Below the pieces are notes generated by a model, which worked only from the letters and a program-made list of their open reading frames with translations, did no database searches and was not told the origin of the DNA. Below, piece by piece: positions 7,208 through 61,424 of a stretch of 64,000 nucleotides of DNA. Origin of the DNA: an uncultured delta proteobacterium (GTDB lineage Bacteria; Myxococcota_A; Polyangia; Polyangiales; Houyiibacteriaceae); the NCBI GenBank assembly GCA_963712235.1, contig CAVQHC010000007.1:221144-285143 (forward strand), read 5' to 3'. Position numbers and translations under genes: made by a program. Numbering within the stretch: position 1 is the stretch's first letter; every line of letters starts with the position of its first letter.

Positions 7208-8332
7208 CTAGAGTCCGCGAAGGACGGTTAGGTAGCGTTCGGCCGTGCTGTCCCAGGGGAACGTCGAGGTGACATATTCGGCGGTGCGTTTGCTTGCGGC
7301 GCGAAGGGCTTCGGGGTCGTCCGCTAGAGCTTGAATACGCGCTGCAAACGCATCCGCGTCTGCGGTCGGTGCGAACCAGCCGTTGACGCCTTCGTCGATG
7401 ACGTCTCGGATGCCTTCGAGGTCGGCGGCGAGCGTGGGGAGGCCGCAGGCGCCGGCTTCGAGCATCACGATGCCGAAGCCCTCCATGTCACCGGGGACGA
7501 CGATGTTCGGCATGACAAACAGCTGGCCTCTTCGGTAGAGCTCGACGAGCTCGGCTTCGGAAATCCTGCCCAAACAACGGACGCGTTGTTGAAGCCCCGC
7601 ACGTTCAATCGCCACTTGGATGTTCTCGCGTTCCGGTCCGTCGCCGGCGAGCCAGAAGACCACGCGATCTGGGAGTTTCGGCATGACGTTCTCGATGAAC
7701 CACGCGAATCCCTTGCGGCGGACTTGGCGCCCGACCGTGACCAGTAGGAATGCTTCCTCGGGCAGCGGCGGAGCCCCGGCAATGTCCAAACTCGCGGCTT
7801 CCATTCGCGAAGCCGCCACCCCCTCGAAGCGATCGAGGTCAACGGCGTTGGGGACCACGTGCACGCGTTCGCGCGGCAAACCGCGCTCCACCAACTGCTC
7901 GCCGGTGGCGCGGCTGACCGGCATGACTGCGTCGAGCATCCCGCACAGCCGCCGCACCGCCTTCTGGTACAGTGGGTTCGGGTCGGTGACGTCCAGTCCG
8001 TGCACAATTGCGGCCAGCCGGATGCCTTTCTTCTTGAGCGCAGGACCCGCGATCAGAAGCGGAAGCGCGCTGGTCATGCTGCTGAAGAGAATCGTATCGG
8101 CCCGATACGCCGCGGCCTCGCGTCCAAGCCGAACAGCGAGCGAAGCCAAGAACGGCACGGCTTTGACGTGCACCCACCTCCAACTCGAACGAAGCGCGAG
8201 GGTTCGCATCTGCACGTCGTCACGCTTCTCGAGCTCGCCGTGGAGCTCCATCGCCACGCGCTGCATTCCCCCCATGTTGCTCAATGGGGCATCCGACGGT
8301 GGAAACGAATGGGAGACGAAAAGGAGTCGCAC
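7208..8332 (-). CDS. glycosyltransferase family 4 (GT-B fold)
   Basis: 374-aa ORF with the EGFGIVMLEAGACGLP motif of GT4/GT1-type transferases. GTG start. Confidence 0.8.
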   Translation of the reverse strand: MRLLFVSHSFPPSDAPLSNMGGMQRVAMELHGELEKRDDVQMRTLALRSSWRWVHVKAVPFLASLAVRLGREAAAYRADTILFSSMTSALPLLIAGPALKKKGIRLAAIVHGLDVTDPNPLYQKAVRRLCGMLDAVMPVSRATGEQLVERGLPRERVHVVPNAVDLDRFEGVAASRMEAASLDIAGAPPLPEEAFLLVTVGRQVRRKGFAWFIENVMPKLPDRVVFWLAGDGPERENIQVAIERAGLQQRVRCLGRISEAELVELYRRGQLFVMPNIVVPGDMEGFGIVMLEAGACGLPTLAADLEGIRDVIDEGVNGWFAPTADADAFAARIQALADDPEALRAASKRTAEYVTSTFPWDSTAERYLTVLRGL

Positions 8333-8344
8333 CAGGCCGTGTCC

Positions 8345-8626
8345 CTACTCGTAGGTACAGAGGTAGGCCGTGTCGATCGCGACCTGCAGGTGGAACTTCT
8401 GCTGCGCATCGACCACGAAGCTCGTGCCCGCCTCGTAGCGCACCCAGTCCTCGGAGCCCGGAAGCTTCACAGTGAGCGCGCCGCTGACCACGGTCACTGT
8501 CTCTTTGTCCGTGGTCGCAAACTCGTAGTTCCCCGGGGCCATCACACCAACGGTGGCGCGGAGCGTTTCGGTCTGAAAACCAATCGACTTCACCTTGCCG
8601 TCGAAGTACTCATTGACGTCGAGCAT
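8345..8626 (-). CDS. ppnP: pyrimidine/purine nucleoside phosphorylase PpnP (DUF1255 cupin)
   Basis: 93-aa product beginning [17 protein letters not shown], matching the PpnP/YaiE family over its full length. The ORF-track extension to 9265 runs into the repeat and is rejected. Confidence 0.85.
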
Positions 8627-8734
8627 GCTCACTCTCCCGGGATCATCGGCGCCGTGGTCACCATCGCGCTGCCGGCTAAGAGCGCGCGTAGCACGACCCC
8701 GGCGCCATGTCAGTACCGGAGCGGCAGTGACACT

Positions 8735-9350
8735 GGCGCCGCAGCGACCGGGGCGCGGAAAAAGGCGCGACACGGGGCTGCGTCGAACGGCTCGGCTTGC
8801 AAAGGTGGCCGGAGGGGCTTGAGGCCTGAGGCCACGCAAGCCGAGCCTCGGAGCTCGCGCCAATCGGCGGTGGTTGCTGTCTTGCCGATTGTCACTCGCG
8901 ACGTCGACTCCGCCCCATATCGCGCCTTTTTCCGCGCCCCTCCCTACGGAGACAGGACCACCCAACCTTCCCCAAACAGCAGGCGGCAGCGCGAGCCCGA
9001 AGGGCGAAGCCCGGCGCCAAAGGCGCCGGCAAGGCAGAGCGAAGCGAATGCCGCGCCAGGGAGGATTACGGGTGGGGGTGGGCGGGGCGGTGCAATCAAG
9101 CCGTACCACCCAACCCACCCAAGACCCACCCCCCAAACACCCGCGGCAGCACAACCCGCTCGGCGCCACCCGCCCCTCCATACGGAGACAGGACGCACAA
9201 CCTTCCCAACCGGCAGGCGGCAGCGCGAGCCGGAACGGCGAAGCCCGGCGCGAACGCGCCGGCAAGGCAGAGCGAAGCGAATGCCGCGCCAGGGAGGATT
9301 ACGGGTGGGGGTGGGCGGGCGGTGTAACCAAACCGGGCAGTGTAACTAAA
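8735..9350 (+). repeat. composite hairpin-rich repeat, copy A (palindromic head 8748-8942 plus two long tandem units)
   Basis: A homologous ~600-bp copy lies at 33119-33720. The outer inverted repeat is 8750-8778 / 8912-8940. Inner hairpins are 8789-8800/8836-8847 and 8861-8868/8884-8891. Units start at 8939 and 9172. Confidence 0.8.
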
Positions 9351-9392
9351 CCGCCACTGTCACCGCCACCCCGGAGATGCTACGGACCCCGC

Positions 9393-10034
9393 ATGATCAT
9401 CGAGCATTTCTCCGTCGCGCCGCTCGGGTGCAACTGCGTGATTCTTGGCGACGAAGAACGGGGGACGGGGATTGTCGTCGATCCGGGGGGCGAAGCACCT
9501 AGGATTCTTGCGCGCCTCGAAGAGCTCGGCCTCAAATGCGAAGGGATCGTCCACACGCACACTCACTTCGATCACATCGGCGCGACCAAAGAGGTTCAAG
9601 ACGGGACCAATGCGCCGATCATGATTCACGAAGACGATCTGTTCCTCTATGAAGGCGTGCAGATGCAGCTCGATGGTTTCCGGGCCCCGTTCCGCGCACC
9701 AGAAATGGCGGCCGTCGACCGCTTTCTTTCTGATGGCGATACCGTCTTGGCGGGCGGGCTCGAGGCAGACGTCGTTCACACGCCCGGGCACTCGCCGGGC
9801 AGTATTTGCCTCACTTTGGAAGGCGATCGACCCCTCGTCATCGCGGGCGACACCCTCTTCGCCCGGAGTGTCGGTCGCAGCGACCTGTGGGGCGGCAACA
9901 CGTCGCAGCTCGTCGACTCGATCAAACGCAAGCTCTTCGCCTTGCCAGACGAAACCCTGGTGATCTGCGGCCACGGCCCCAACACGACGATCGGCGAAGA
10001 GCGCCGCTTGAACCCGTTCGTCGGCGGCGCTTAG
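9393..10034 (+). CDS. MBL-fold metallo-hydrolase (glyoxalase II-like)
   Basis: 213-aa product starting MIIEHFSV, with HTHTHFDHIG (HxHxDH) and a downstream HTPGHSPG motif. Confidence 0.85.
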   Translation: MIIEHFSVAPLGCNCVILGDEERGTGIVVDPGGEAPRILARLEELGLKCEGIVHTHTHFDHIGATKEVQDGTNAPIMIHEDDLFLYEGVQMQLDGFRAPFRAPEMAAVDRFLSDGDTVLAGGLEADVVHTPGHSPGSICLTLEGDRPLVIAGDTLFARSVGRSDLWGGNTSQLVDSIKRKLFALPDETLVICGHGPNTTIGEERRLNPFVGGA

Positions 10035-29657: not shown

Positions 29658-30049
29658 CTTCCGGCCCCAAGCCGCCAGCCCGCGACCATGATGGCGCCCC
29701 AGCCGACCAAGAAGAGCAAACCACCGAAAGGGGTGATCATTCCAAGCTTCGTCTGGCCAGTAATTGCCATCATGTAAAGGCTACCGCTGAAGAGGCCGAC
29801 TCCAGCGAAGAATGCCCAGCCCGCGAACAGCGCCGAGGCGCCTGCACCGCGATGGACGAGCCAGGCGGCCAGCGCCAGCGCCAGCGCATGGGTCAGGTGG
29901 TAGTGGGCGGCTGTGGTCCACCAGTCCAAGCGCTTGACGGCGTCTGGAAGCGAACCGAGGCGAGACTGCAAGCCATGCGCGCCAAACGCGCCGAGCGCCA
30001 CGGCGCTAAAGCCGAGCAAGCCAGAGAGAATGATGAAGATTCTAGCCAT
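29654..30049 (-). CDS. DUF423 (YgdD/TMEM256) family membrane protein
   Basis: 131-aa four-TM protein. The FGAHG motif near the N-terminus and HY/H residues are typical of DUF423. Confidence 0.75.
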   Translation of the reverse strand: MARIFIILSGLLGFSAVALGAFGAHGLQSRLGSLPDAVKRLDWWTTAAHYHLTHALALALAAWLVHRGAGASALFAGWAFFAGVGLFSGSLYMMAITGQTKLGMITPFGGLLFLVGWGAIMVAGWRLGAGS

Positions 30050-30163: not shown

Positions 30164-33118
<2,955 letters not shown>

Positions 33119-33720
33119 TCGGCGGTGTAACCAGAACTGGTGCCGCAGCTACCGGGGCGCGGGAAAAAGCCCGTCACGGGGTTCCATCGAACGGCTCGGC
33201 TTGCAGATGTGGTCGGAAGCACTTGGGGGCCTGGACCACGCAAGCCGAGCCTCGGAACTCGCGCCAATCGGAGCGGGTTGCTGTCTTGCCGATTGTCACT
33301 CGTTACGTCGACTCCACCCCATGACGGGTTTTTTCCGCGCCCCTCCATACGGAGACAGGACCACACAACCTTCCCAACCGGCAGGCGGCAGCGCGAGCCC
33401 GCAGGGCGAAGCCCGGCGCGAACGCGCCGGCAAGGCAGAGCAAAGCGAATGCCGCGCCAGGGAGGATTACGGGTGGGGGTGGGCGGGGCGGTGTAACCAA
33501 GCCGTACCACCCAACCCACCCAAGACCTGGCCCCCATCCACCCGCGGCAGCGCGAGCCCGAAGGGCGAAGCCCGGCGCGAACGCGCCGGCAAGGCAGAGC
33601 AAAGCGAATGCCGCGCCAGGGAGGATTACGGGTGGGGGTGGGCGGGCGGTGTAACCAAGCCGAACCACAACCCACCCAAGACCGGCCCCCACCACCCGCG
33701 GCAGCGCAAACCCAAGGAGC
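33119..33720 (+). repeat. composite hairpin-rich repeat, copy B (palindromic head 33154-33343 plus tandem units)
   Basis: Colinear with 8735-9350 and in the same orientation. Outer inverted repeat 33154-33182 / 33316-33343. Unit cores restart near 33373, 33543 and 33697. Confidence 0.8.
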
Positions 33721-33734
33721 AACACTGCAATCAG

Positions 33735-33764
33735 AAGCGGCCCCGTCCGACGACGAGGCCGCTT
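33735..33764. terminator. hairpin AAGCGGCC-N14-GGCCGCTT between the convergent sucA and hsp20 genes
   Basis: 8-bp perfect stem read from the sequence. Only a weak U-tract on either strand. Confidence 0.35.
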
Positions 33765-59507: not shown

Positions 59508-59522
59508 CGTTGTTCCTCGCGG

Positions 59523-59596
59523 CAGGCCAGGAGGGATTCGAACCCACAACCCGCGGATTTGGAATCCGCTGCTCTACCAATTGGAGCTACTGGCCT
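59523..59596 (-). tRNA. tRNA-Trp (anticodon CCA)
   Basis: Cloverleaf folded by hand: acceptor AGGCCAG/CTGGCCT, D arm GCTC/GAGC, anticodon arm GCGGA-TTCCAAA-TCCGC. The T arm has one U-U mismatch. No encoded CCA. Confidence 0.9.
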
Positions 59597-59607
59597 AGAT
59601 GCGGGTC

Positions 59608-59769
59608 CTATTTACTCTCTTTATGTTCCGTGCGCTGGTTGCATTTGGGACAGAACTTTTTGAGCGTCAGTCTCTCCCTCTGGCCGGGCTTTCTCAACTT
59701 CGTCGTCTGGTAGTTGCGCGCACCGCACTCTTCACATGCGAGCGCGACCTTAACCCGCCTATCACTCAA
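59608..59769 (-). CDS. rpmG: 50S ribosomal protein L33 (Zn-ribbon, C+ form)
   Basis: 53-aa ORF absent from the ORF track: (M)SDRRVKVALACEECGARNYQTTKLRKPGQRERLTLKKFCPKCNQRTEHKESK. TTG start. Canonical position between tuf and tRNA-Trp. Confidence 0.85.
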   Translation of the reverse strand: MSDRRVKVALACEECGARNYQTTKLRKPGQRERLTLKKFCPKCNQRTEHKESK

Positions 59770-59807
59770 TGTCTTGCAGGGTCCCTATCTGTCGTACGTC
59801 CACCCTG

Positions 59808-60998
<1,191 letters not shown>

Positions 60999-61058
60999 CG
61001 TTCGTTCCCTACTTCGTCGTTCTTCTGAGTGGGTCGCTGGAACCCACGAAATCTGCGG

Positions 61059-61130
61059 AGCCCAGGATGAGACTTGAACTCACGACCTCCCCCTTACCAA
61101 GGGGGTGCTCTACCACTGAGCTACCTGGGC
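61059..61130 (-). tRNA. tRNA-Thr (anticodon GGU)
   Basis: Hand-folded cloverleaf: acceptor GCCCAGG/CCTGGGC, anticodon arm CCCCC-TTGGTAA-GGGGG, T arm GTGAG-TTCAAGT-CTCAT. Confidence 0.9.
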
Positions 61131-61147
61131 ATAGTCTGATTTGCGGG

Positions 61148-61220
61148 AGCGGGCGACCGGGCTCGAACCGGCGACATTCAGTTTGGAAAACTGAGGCTCT
61201 ACCAACTGAGCTACACCCGC
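61148..61220 (-). tRNA. tRNA-Gly (anticodon UCC)
   Basis: Acceptor GCGGGTG/CGCCCGC, anticodon arm TCAGT-TTTCCAA-ACTGA, T arm GCCGG-TTCGAGC-CCGGT. Confidence 0.9.
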
Positions 61221-61242
61221 GTAATCTCTTCGTTCATCTCCT

Positions 61243-61327
61243 GGTGGAGGGTGGTGGGTTCGAACCACCGTAGGCATAAGCCGGCAGATTTACAGTCTGC
61301 TCCCTTTGACCGCTCGGGCAACCCTCC
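61243..61327 (-). tRNA. tRNA-Tyr (anticodon GUA), long variable arm, encoded CCA
   Basis: Acceptor GGAGGGT/ACCCTCC, anticodon arm GCAGA-CTGTAAA-TCTGC, T arm GGTGG-TTCGAAC-CCACC, 3' ACCA. Confidence 0.9.
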
Positions 61328-61351
61328 ATGGTCATTCGTGTTTTCGCGTAG

Positions 61352-61424
61352 AGCTGGCGATGAGACTTGAACTCATAACCGCCGGTTTACAAAACCGGTG
61401 CTCTACCAATTGAGCTACGCCAGC
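61352..61424 (-). tRNA. tRNA-Thr (anticodon UGU)
   Basis: Acceptor GCTGGCG/CGCCAGC, anticodon arm CCGGT-TTTGTAA-ACCGG, T arm ATGAG-TTCAAGT-CTCAT. Confidence 0.9.

Follow-up and report, generated by a model that had tools for sequence, protein, structure and literature searches.

A hairpin-rich element between ppnP and an MBL-fold hydrolase gene

We analysed a 64,000-nucleotide stretch of DNA (the window) from an uncultured delta proteobacterium of the Polyangiales (assembly GCA_963712235.1, contig CAVQHC010000007.1, positions 221,144 to 285,143 of the forward strand), in which ppnP (ATG at 8626, minus strand) and the gene of an MBL-fold hydrolase (ATG at 9393, plus strand) diverge from a 766-bp spacer. 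Both genes are confirmed by Pfam matches (2.4e-35 for ppnP), and ppnP is intact in the window. An initial annotation, made from the sequence alone, had proposed that a single hairpin-rich repeat fills about 80% of this spacer. The repeat, here called copy A, takes up 84% of the spacer if delimited at 8722-9367 and 79% if delimited at 8747-9351, in agreement with that proposal. We consider it reasonably probable that copy A and a second copy in the window, copy B, are members of a clade-wide family of non-coding, modular hairpin extragenic repeats of uncultured Polyangiales, similar in kind to REP/BIME, BOX and hairpin-type MITE (miniature inverted-repeat transposable element)/REPIN sequences.

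Copy B lies on the same strand at 33136-33720 (33119 to about 33765 with its junctions), which bears out the annotated second copy in the same orientation. It is located between the convergent genes sucA and hsp20, both Pfam-confirmed; its first nucleotides follow immediately on the sucA stop codon (33116-33118), and it stops short of the 3′ end of hsp20. The sequences that flank copies A and B have nothing in common beyond the repeat. Within it, the heads of the two copies are 83-85% identical and their repeat units 90-92%. A motif from the inverted arms of the head occurs three times in the window, compared to 0.04 times in shuffled sequences, and a G-tract motif from the repeat units occurs four times, compared to 0.00.

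No open reading frame with any coding signal was found in the copy A element. Long but spurious frames run through the repeat at 8874-10034 (plus strand), 8345-9265 (minus strand) and 7859-9349 (plus strand); one of them (386 aa) shares its frame with the MBL gene, and gene callers may over-extend that gene or call false ones here. As delimited here, neither ppnP (two start variants) nor MBL matched any record in exact-sequence look-ups.

Modular anatomy of the two copies

Comparing the window copies with copies elsewhere resolved the following modules: a head palindrome (H), a collapsed form of it (h), a linker (L), the repeat unit (R), closing arms and hexamer arrays. A full element comprises H, L and one to three tandem R, often followed by an extra closing arm. 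The order in copy A is H-L-R-stub-L-R, with the last R truncated, and in copy B it is H-L-R-R-stub.

H is a 194-nt palindrome in which inverted arms of about 40 nt (ACC GGGGCGCGGAAAAAGGCGCGACACGGGGC ...; arm motif ACCGGGGCGCGG...) enclose two inner hairpins, forming a three-way junction. In copy A it spans 8747-8940 on the plus strand, as the annotated head palindrome had led us to expect. The arms (8750-8786 and 8904-8940) are 37 nt each, 89% complementary and separated by 117 nt. Both of the internal hairpins that had been annotated are present: in hairpin 1 (8789-8847), GGCTCGGCTTGC (8789-8800) pairs with GCAAGCCGAGCC (8836-8847), and in hairpin 2 (8861-8891), CAATCGGC (8861-8868) pairs with GCCGATTG (8884-8891). 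A5 and T5 tracts lie beside the GC-rich stems of the arms. The left boundary of H is sharp, falling between ACC and GGGGCGCGG, and the sequence upstream of it is unique. Folding predictions for H gave -133 kcal/mol on the plus strand and -139 kcal/mol on the minus strand (z = -8.9 and -9.2), and none of 200 shuffles was as low.

L is a 46-nt linker with a CUCC-NUAC-GGAG mini-hairpin. It occurs three times in the window and at 13 loci elsewhere, and follows H in most copies; the first one in copy A (L1) spans 8939-8984 on the plus strand. R is about 160 nt long (units range from 105 to 160 nt) and consists of three adjacent hairpins with mostly GNA-type loops, followed by GGGAGGAT, the nearly invariant G-tract TACGGGTGGGGGTGGGYGGG, GGTGTAAC and a C-rich tail. 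Arrays of R usually end in a stub that repeats the first 13 nt of R (GGCAGCRCRAGCC). In all four window R units, the G-tract matches the G-quadruplex motif of four G-runs of at least three with short loops (GGGTGGGGGTGGGCGGG) and may fold accordingly; these four tracts are the only G4Hunter peaks of at least 1.8 in the 64-kb window.

All features of copy A that follow H are on the plus strand. The R1 core (8985-9095) has its three GNA-type-loop hairpins at about 8990-9056, GGGAGG at 9059-9064 and the G-tract GGGTGGGGGTGGGCGGGG at 9070-9087, where G4Hunter peaks at 2.24. Its C-rich tail (CCACCCAACCCACCCAAGACCCACCCCCC...; 9096-9143) is partly complementary to the G-tract and is the sole stretch of the window with a G4Hunter score of -1.8 or below. 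A partial restart of R (GGCAGCACAACCC, 9145-9157) with its junction (9144-9174) forms the usual R-array end. It is followed by a second linker (L2, 9175-9218), 85% identical to L1, and by the R2 core (9219-9333), which is truncated, has no C-rich tail, carries its G-tract at 9303-9319 and is 92% identical to R1 over 119 nt. The two tandem units of the initial annotation thus exist and start with CCTCC(C/A)TACGGAGACAGGAC; the first begins at 8939 as stated, the second at 9175 rather than 9172, 3 nt off, and the repeat spacing is 233-236 nt. The element closes with a duplicated R end (GGGCAGTGTAACTAAACC) and a hexamer-array remnant (GCCACTGTCACCGCCA) at 9334-9367, where TRF reports an 18-nt repeat (9316-9353); in the relatives L112 and L104, R is followed by hexamers at a junction matching this one.

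On the left, the junction at 8722-8746 (plus strand) contains a hexanucleotide microsatellite remnant (GGCAGTGACACTGGCGCCGCAGCG) homologous to the start of the (CTGNCN)n arrays that L109 and L186 carry at this site. Its orientation is opposite to that of 9349-9364 on the right, and we read 8722-8746 and 9352-9367 as remnants of such a hexamer array, in inverted orientation. Beyond these junctions lies spacer sequence that does not belong to the element. By-eye alignment with the spacers of L108, L109, L110 and L186 showed that the ppnP-proximal part (8627-8720) is conserved in congeners without the element, and it probably holds the ppnP promoter region. The MBL-proximal 25 nt (CCCCGGAGATGCTACGGACCCCGC; 9368-9392, plus strand) are likewise conserved in relatives, and TGCTAYGG within them is a possible extended -10-like element. 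The initial annotation had placed both promoters inside or at the edges of the element. The conserved stretches of about 95 nt beside ppnP and about 25 nt ahead of the MBL ATG are not part of it and persist in element-free congeners, so the promoters need not be inside and this claim is unnecessary.

In copy B, all modules are on the plus strand. The left junction (33119-33150), an R-end-like fragment (GGCGGTGTAACCAGAAC) followed by CTGGTGCCGCAGCTACC, is identical in strain L184. H (33151-33343) has its outer stem from 33154 to 33343, a T6 tract after the GC stem of the right arm and 85% identity to copy A; two stem positions are changed on both sides (GCGCGA/TCGCGC to GCCCGT/ACGGGT). After the linker (33342-33386) come R1 (33387-33545; G-tract 33471-33488) and R2 (33546-33698; G-tract 33630-33646), both with core and tail, and a partial restart of R (GGCAGCGCAAACC, 33700-33712) at 33699-33722; R2 is absent from L184. 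A further hairpin, GCGGCC...GGCCGC at 33738-33763, resembles the closing arms of L066, L094 and L058. A terminator scan made no call there; the hairpin may be a degenerate closing-arm remnant (GCCCCGTCCGNCGA...), an hsp20 terminator or both. In the window, the arms bound H alone: copy A lacks a closing arm, and that of copy B is degenerate if present at all.

In a variant of R, GGGAGGAT is replaced by an insert of about 30 nt (GCACGCTRCTCACTCGCGTGAGAGTGATAC) that forms a CTCAC/GTGAG hairpin. This variant is found at L030:6560-6745 and 7520-7705, L015, L057, L049, L013, L104 and L106, mostly beside genes of the PF05635 family discussed below. Two candidate features of R were rejected. In some copies, GGGAGG might close a stem with a CCUCCC located upstream or downstream of it, but such a stem is not essential, because the insert of the variant replaces GGGAGGAT. 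A small peptide starting from the GTG after GGGAGG has neither its frame nor its stop conserved, copies differing by one G.

A modular repeat family in uncultured Polyangiales

To delimit the family, we searched a collection of species-representative genomes with a 24-mer R motif, GGGAGGATTACGGGTGGGGGTGGG. Among the matches listed, there were more than 103 loci in about 23 assemblies, as judged by accession prefix, often with several loci per contig. All of the listed matches were in metagenome-assembled genomes labelled Myxococcales, Polyangiales, Polyangiaceae, Deltaproteobacteria or Myxococcota. Viral contigs searched with the R motif and an H motif gave no match.

The similarity of copies A and B might in principle reflect a local segmental duplication or chance resemblance in GC-rich DNA. 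The similarity itself, and nothing more, speaks for this. The initial annotation had named a segmental duplication with identical flanks, and a total of two copies, as findings that would overturn it; the flanks in fact differ, divergent ppnP/MBL at one site and convergent sucA/hsp20 at the other, more than 100 loci exist elsewhere, and the window motif counts are far above those of shuffles. We regard this explanation as refuted, with a probability close to nil.

The modules were seen in many combinations: R alone, two or three R in tandem, inverted R pairs, H with L or another linker and R, and R pairs enclosed by arms (arm-R-R-arm). Full-length H is found beside R in about 27 loci and is followed by one to three R units across loci. 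Copies are often truncated, inverted or duplicated. The H-R-R composite recurs at non-orthologous loci of other species with 79-83% identity over 600-640 nt. The view of the spacer content as one element is therefore right in that H-R-R recurs as a unit, and needs qualification in that the family is a mosaic of separable modules. Complete elements bounded by arms of about 40 nt measure 317-550 nt elsewhere (L036, L045, L066 and L067).

The family appears to be undescribed so far. At the gathering score, only five tRNAs in the whole window qualified in Rfam, and lowering the threshold to E ≤10 for 8600-9450 gave sub-threshold hairpins of the miRNA-precursor type only (for example, 32.7 bits against a gathering score of 168), in line with the initial statement that the repeat matches no known RNA family. 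Full-text literature searches returned no match for two family sequence strings, the R G-tract string among them, and we found nothing on this repeat family in the literature on myxobacterial extragenic repeats and PF05635.

Compensatory substitutions maintain the stems of H and R

We aligned 110 R cores (alignment A2), for which RNAalifold gave three adjacent hairpins, and scored a curated version with 22 pairs. Standard pairs make up 91.9% of the cells, compared to 83.8% in column shuffles. The covariation score is 0.174 versus 0.039 in shuffles, a value reached by none of 500; sliding the partners by one to three columns away from the true register reduced it to at most 0.047. Individual pairs show how completely both sides change together. 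At pair 55-85, 61 copies have GC, 49 have CG and not one is broken; the counts are GC 71 and CG 35 at pair 60-80, AU 38, GC 32 and CG 27 at pair 63-78, and CG 87 and GC 14 at pair 24-28.

For H, 29 copies from about 12 genomes were aligned, giving 1240 Watson-Crick cells. Changes on both sides are frequent in the outer stem and both inner hairpins, affecting at least eight pairs (for example, GC 15/CG 12, CG 18/UA 10 and AU 15/GC 11). The stems of both H and R are thus kept by compensatory substitutions. The wobble counts of R and H point to no single strand: on the plus strand of R there are about 10 GU cells and about 5 AC cells, and the H signal is mixed between strands. Hairpin formation, be it in single-stranded DNA, in a cruciform or in RNA, would be what selection or propagation sees.

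The repeats favour gene 3′ ends

Genes around the repeats were called with a codon log-odds caller, which recovered the known genes of the window. Among the repeat clusters with genes on both sides, 75 of 76 are intergenic; 34 lie between convergent, 33 between tandem and 9 between divergent genes. H occupies the outer edge of composites. Its left arm points toward the 3′ end of a gene in 19 of 25 cases, and for 12 of those 19 the distance from the stop codon is -2 to 20 nt. The family is non-coding, almost exclusively intergenic and biased to sites that follow a stop codon or separate convergent genes. Copy A, placed as it is in a divergent promoter region, is atypical of a family that is mostly found behind gene 3′ ends. 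R shows no orientation bias in tandem gene contexts (12 versus 19 overall, 9 versus 15 for solitary R). The genes closest to the repeats, 150 in all, have housekeeping roles; examples are rpoD, uvrA, ileS, bioA and rpsA. A degenerate R at L013:6627-6800 lies directly beside an apparent tRNA gene on the opposite strand (...GGACTCGAACC...).

At their usual position behind genes, the structures probably act as transcript-end or terminator elements. The A/T tract of H is at least five long in 19 of 29 copies. Because of these tracts and its position just behind the stop codon, H, with its order of A-tract, GC-stem and T-tract, has the look of a two-way intrinsic terminator, or could serve as a barrier to 3′ exonucleases. 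R presents a C-rich, G-poor tract on either transcribed strand, namely its tail or the complement of its G-tract, which could load Rho, in parallel to REP/BIME elements, and the hairpins might block 3′ exonucleases. In the copy A region, a simple terminator scan called only one small sub-hairpin on the minus strand (8785-8768). A sigma-70 consensus promoter scan of 8550-9450 found none, nor did scanning reveal sigma-70-like sites in copy A or copy B.

We suggest that copy A, atypically for the family, inserted into a hexanucleotide microsatellite between two divergent genes and is most likely a passenger that has pushed the two promoter regions about 620 bp apart.

Turnover at orthologous sites

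In the congeners L108, L109 and L110, which share 86-89% nucleotide identity with the window, the element is absent from the copy A site (site A), and the spacer of 150-210 nt holds only gene-proximal sequences and a hexanucleotide microsatellite, (GCTGTC)n or (CCTGTC)n. Other relatives have R and hexamers (L112), a short R (L124), R and an inverted H (L132), an inverted H (L116 and L134) or half an R with its inverted copy (L138) at this site. In several congeners (L108, L110 and L186:1567-1690), ppnP itself is internally deleted relative to window positions 8355-8520: the N-terminal approximately 22 codons are joined to the last approximately 12, leaving a remnant of about 38 aa. This deletion indicates that the gene beside the hot spot is decaying in those lineages, while the window ppnP is intact.

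The copy B site (site B) of strain L184 (GCA_049665465.1, about 97% identical) has the same left junction, one R rather than two, and an H collapsed to the 22-nt mini-palindrome GGGGCGCGGAAAAAAGCGCCCC (2020-2045). The same collapsed form is found at the unrelated locus L066 (reverse strand, about 7570-7600). Either the palindrome has collapsed repeatedly, or GGGGCGCGGAAAAAAGCGCCCC is an ancestral alternative to it. The changes at site B look like slippage across the palindrome combined with unequal exchange between GGCAGCGCGAGCC repeats. L185, which had seemed to offer an empty site B with a 48-nt spacer, was discarded as a contig end inside an R tail. The family therefore varies by presence and absence at orthologous sites among congeners, and the number of R and the state of the palindrome vary between close strains. 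Spread of the repeats would combine a putative trans-acting activity with local slippage and unequal recombination.

Several observations weigh against the interpretation as spreading extragenic repeats. Neither the arm-bounded copies nor the comparisons of filled and empty sites revealed a target-site duplication; in place of a direct repeat, the arm-bounded ends extend the inverted repeat (ACC...GGT). None of the 25 Pfam families with the most matches among the 150 nearest genes is a transposase, integrase or reverse transcriptase family. R identity within a genome is 87.7%, compared to 84.5% between genomes, and a search for near-identical dispersed copies, the expected trace of recent transposition, yielded only one same-genome pair of different loci with at least 95% identity over at least 150 nt. 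The low within-genome excess and this single pair imply that the copies are old and that there was no recent burst. In three species with 72-94% identity between the flanking proteins, R persists at one shared intergenic site. While the search pattern itself forced the G-tract in most aligned R copies, the tract TACG(N)GGTGGGGGTGGGYGGG is also kept in 20 of 24 copies without the exact 24-mer, including copies found through the MBL gene. Finally, the A/T tract of H is shorter than five in 10 of 29 copies, so the terminator reading cannot fit all of them. The lack of a burst, the persistence of R and the retention of the G-tract are explained no less well by a selected host function than by selfish spread. 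For 22 of 110 copies, compared to 7 expected, the nearest R neighbour comes from the same genome.

In a rival explanation, R, and possibly H, is a structured RNA: a cis-acting 3′-UTR element or a multicopy small RNA, which would bind a factor through a domain of three hairpins and a conserved G-tract, single-stranded or folded as a G-quadruplex. The copies would then form a gene family and be neither junk nor mobile DNA. The strong covariation would be expected of such an RNA, as would a G-tract that is near-invariant even outside motif selection, the retention of R at orthologous sites across species, the weak homogenisation within genomes and the excess of GU over AC cells in the plus-strand R stems. 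It is harder to reconcile with the absence of an orientation bias of R in tandem contexts, with the strand-mixed wobble signal of H, with the frequent truncation, inversion and duplication of copies and with the lack of an Rfam family match. Moreover, solitary R have no conserved promoter before them, the upstream sequence being unique up to about 15 nt before R, and the window copies have no sigma-70-like sites. We consider a structured RNA unlikely, if well short of negligible.

The same data bear on a classical MITE, which would derive by deletion from a DDE-transposase insertion sequence and have terminal inverted repeats as well as a target-site duplication. Several complete elements of 317-550 nt are indeed bounded by arms of about 40 nt, and the element is small, non-coding and multicopy. 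This explanation is nevertheless highly improbable: arm-bounded copies show no direct duplication and their flanks continue the inverted repeat, the arms in the window bound only H and not the composite, no transposase is among the frequent neighbouring Pfam families, and near-identical copies within a genome are lacking. With ends that extend the inverted repeat and no target-site duplication, the family more closely resembles elements that depend on hairpins or single-stranded DNA than DDE-type MITEs.

Hexamer arrays and PF05635 cassettes at the same sites

Hexanucleotide microsatellites of the form (CTGNCN)n (such as CTGGCG, CTGGCA, CTGACG and CTGTCG) occur in the ppnP-MBL spacer of congeners and flank many R; examples are at L108:2950-2985 and, upstream of MBL, in L109, L186 and L165. 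Such arrays are intergenic in 31 of 33 cases, and 24 of 33 lie within 150 nt of a module. Around R, they are mostly inverted (11 to 3 upstream, 8 to 2 downstream).

In some relatives, site A is occupied by genes of PF05635, the 23S rRNA intervening-sequence protein family, an Avd-like four-helix bundle by Pfam match. L104 (180-521) and L106 (164-493), whose MBL protein is 95-96% identical, carry a single PF05635 gene there. The order is hexamer arrays, a hairpin overlapping the ribosome-binding site, the 114-aa gene, a hairpin, an R variant and hexamers. At L186:2001-2656 and L187:117-772, two convergent PF05635 genes instead sit between long hexamer arrays, here too with hairpins that overlap the ribosome-binding sites, in the synteny PBP, glycosyltransferase, ppnP remnant, X, MBL, ROK, PGI; the same pair is also present at a second locus of the same genome (L191). 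Each of the nine PF05635 genes found in R-selected loci has an R within about 100-300 nt, mostly in the same orientation. The protein family is very large and highly conserved, with at least 969 matches, the top 120 of which are 83-100% identical. The initial annotation had stated that no transposase, reverse transcriptase or other open reading frame accompanies the repeat. Among the 25 most frequent Pfam families, the 150 nearest genes and the protein clusters of 103 loci likewise include no transposase or reverse transcriptase family; the absence of an open reading frame, in contrast, holds for the window only, since relatives carry PF05635 cassettes at the same site.

These neighbours raise the possibility that the modules are non-coding parts or remnants of an intergenic island system of (CTGNCN)n arrays and PF05635 cassettes, rearranged by recombination at the arrays. 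The occupation of site A by a PF05635 gene with an R variant or by a gene pair between arrays, the gene pair at a second locus of the same genome, the proximity of all nine genes to R, the closeness of most arrays to a module with inversion around R, and the size and high conservation of the PF05635 family are all consistent with this idea. Yet a hexamer array lies within 150 nt of only 20 of the 124 module clusters, the gene-pair loci L186-L193 contain neither H nor R, and the window has no PF05635 gene. Furthermore, the R-selected sample is biased towards R, and co-occurrence may reflect no more than shared 'safe' intergenic hot spots. We judge the island system to be improbable as an account of the modules; their link to arrays and PF05635 genes may be mechanistic or may come from shared hot spots only.

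Relationship to known repeats and terminators

In its functional traits, the family belongs with REP/BIME-like extragenic repeats. Like the REP/BIME sequences of Enterobacteria and Pseudomonas (REPINs/RAYT), it is non-coding and extragenic, has GC-rich hairpins with compensatory changes, forms mosaics in both orientations and prefers gene 3′ ends close to stop codons. REP/BIME sequences protect transcript ends and attenuate transcription, and by analogy we propose the same roles here. The family is not REP in the strict sense: its units measure 105-194 nt (a 194-nt three-way junction for H, 105-160 nt for R) rather than the 20-40 nt of a REP palindrome, a REP being about 35 nt, and no GTAG-like 5′ motif is present at the boundaries of H or R. 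REP sequences are species-specific, whereas the sequence of this family is conserved over about 23 species, and its G-tract/C-tract module has no REP counterpart. No gene for RAYT, the Y1 transposase that mobilises REPINs, was seen in the 8-kb loci examined.

The BOX element of Streptococcus pneumoniae (boxA-boxB(n)-boxC) is alike in combining a head with a variable number of tandem internal units and in being non-coding, structured and intergenic; here, H is followed by one to three R across loci, and strains that are 97% identical differ by one versus two R. A mobilising activity is not established for either. BOX is unrelated in sequence and taxon, and the present family differs in having a long palindrome as its head, often a closing arm, and units three to four times longer. 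The hairpin-type MITEs Correia/NEMIS (Neisseria), RUP and Nezha, which can supply terminators or processing sites, are also small, multicopy, non-coding and gene-adjacent, with inverted ends. The family differs from them in its tandem internal units and in the age and divergence of its copies, near which neither a target-site duplication nor a related insertion sequence was seen.

The outer part of H resembles a bidirectional intrinsic terminator in its order of A5-6, GC-rich stem, stem and T5-7, and in its place, mostly 0-20 nt after the stop codon and between convergent genes. It departs from that model in that its 'loop' is a 117-nt two-hairpin junction and in that pairing runs beyond the A and T tracts. 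The 23S rRNA intervening sequences and PF05635 cassettes share with the family a build of small hairpin-flanked cassettes and, in relatives, the same intergenic site beside R. The window copies, however, contain no gene, lie outside rRNA and have no reverse transcriptase as in a diversity-generating retroelement. Since neither copy A nor copy B adjoins a reverse transcriptase gene, they also do not qualify as a retron msr-msd or a diversity-generating retroelement template, and a CRISPR array is excluded by R units that abut or are joined by repeated linkers, without unique spacers. What sets the family apart from these systems is its conservation across species, the near-invariant G-quadruplex-type tract, a three-way-junction head that abuts stop codons and the co-location with arrays and PF05635 genes.

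Extragenic repeats such as REP/BIME, BOX and Correia have shaped views on transcript-end control, genome plasticity and strain typing; to our knowledge, such families are well described only in a few cultured lineages. The present family extends them to about 23 species-level genomes of an uncultured Myxococcota clade, with covariation support for both main modules. The intergenic hot spots that it marks are hypervariable; short-read assemblies will break at them, and gene callers will be misled. For GC-rich bacteria with few canonical terminators, the family is a natural source of candidate ones. It also points to an unexplored link with PF05635 cassettes, for which we know of no established function beyond diversity-generating retroelements. 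A bolder and rather doubtful extension is that H/R, hexamer arrays and PF05635 cassettes form one intergenic system of marine and soil Polyangiales, or that R is a new, widespread class of structured RNA or G-quadruplex that serves the host at gene ends. In the one-system version, a small nucleic-acid-binding protein and G-quadruplex modules may move or recombine at microsatellite 'landing pads' beside housekeeping genes.

Other features of the window

A (GCTGGC)3 array is located at 29868-29896, at the start of the 1088-aa sucA open reading frame. The annotated N-terminus of sucA (...GGQRQRQRMGQ...) probably reaches too far into the intergenic region on its 5′ side, with the true start likely to lie further downstream. 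The five tRNA genes of the window (Trp, Thr, Gly, Tyr and Thr) lie on the minus strand at 59521-61424; they are ordinary and unrelated to the repeat.

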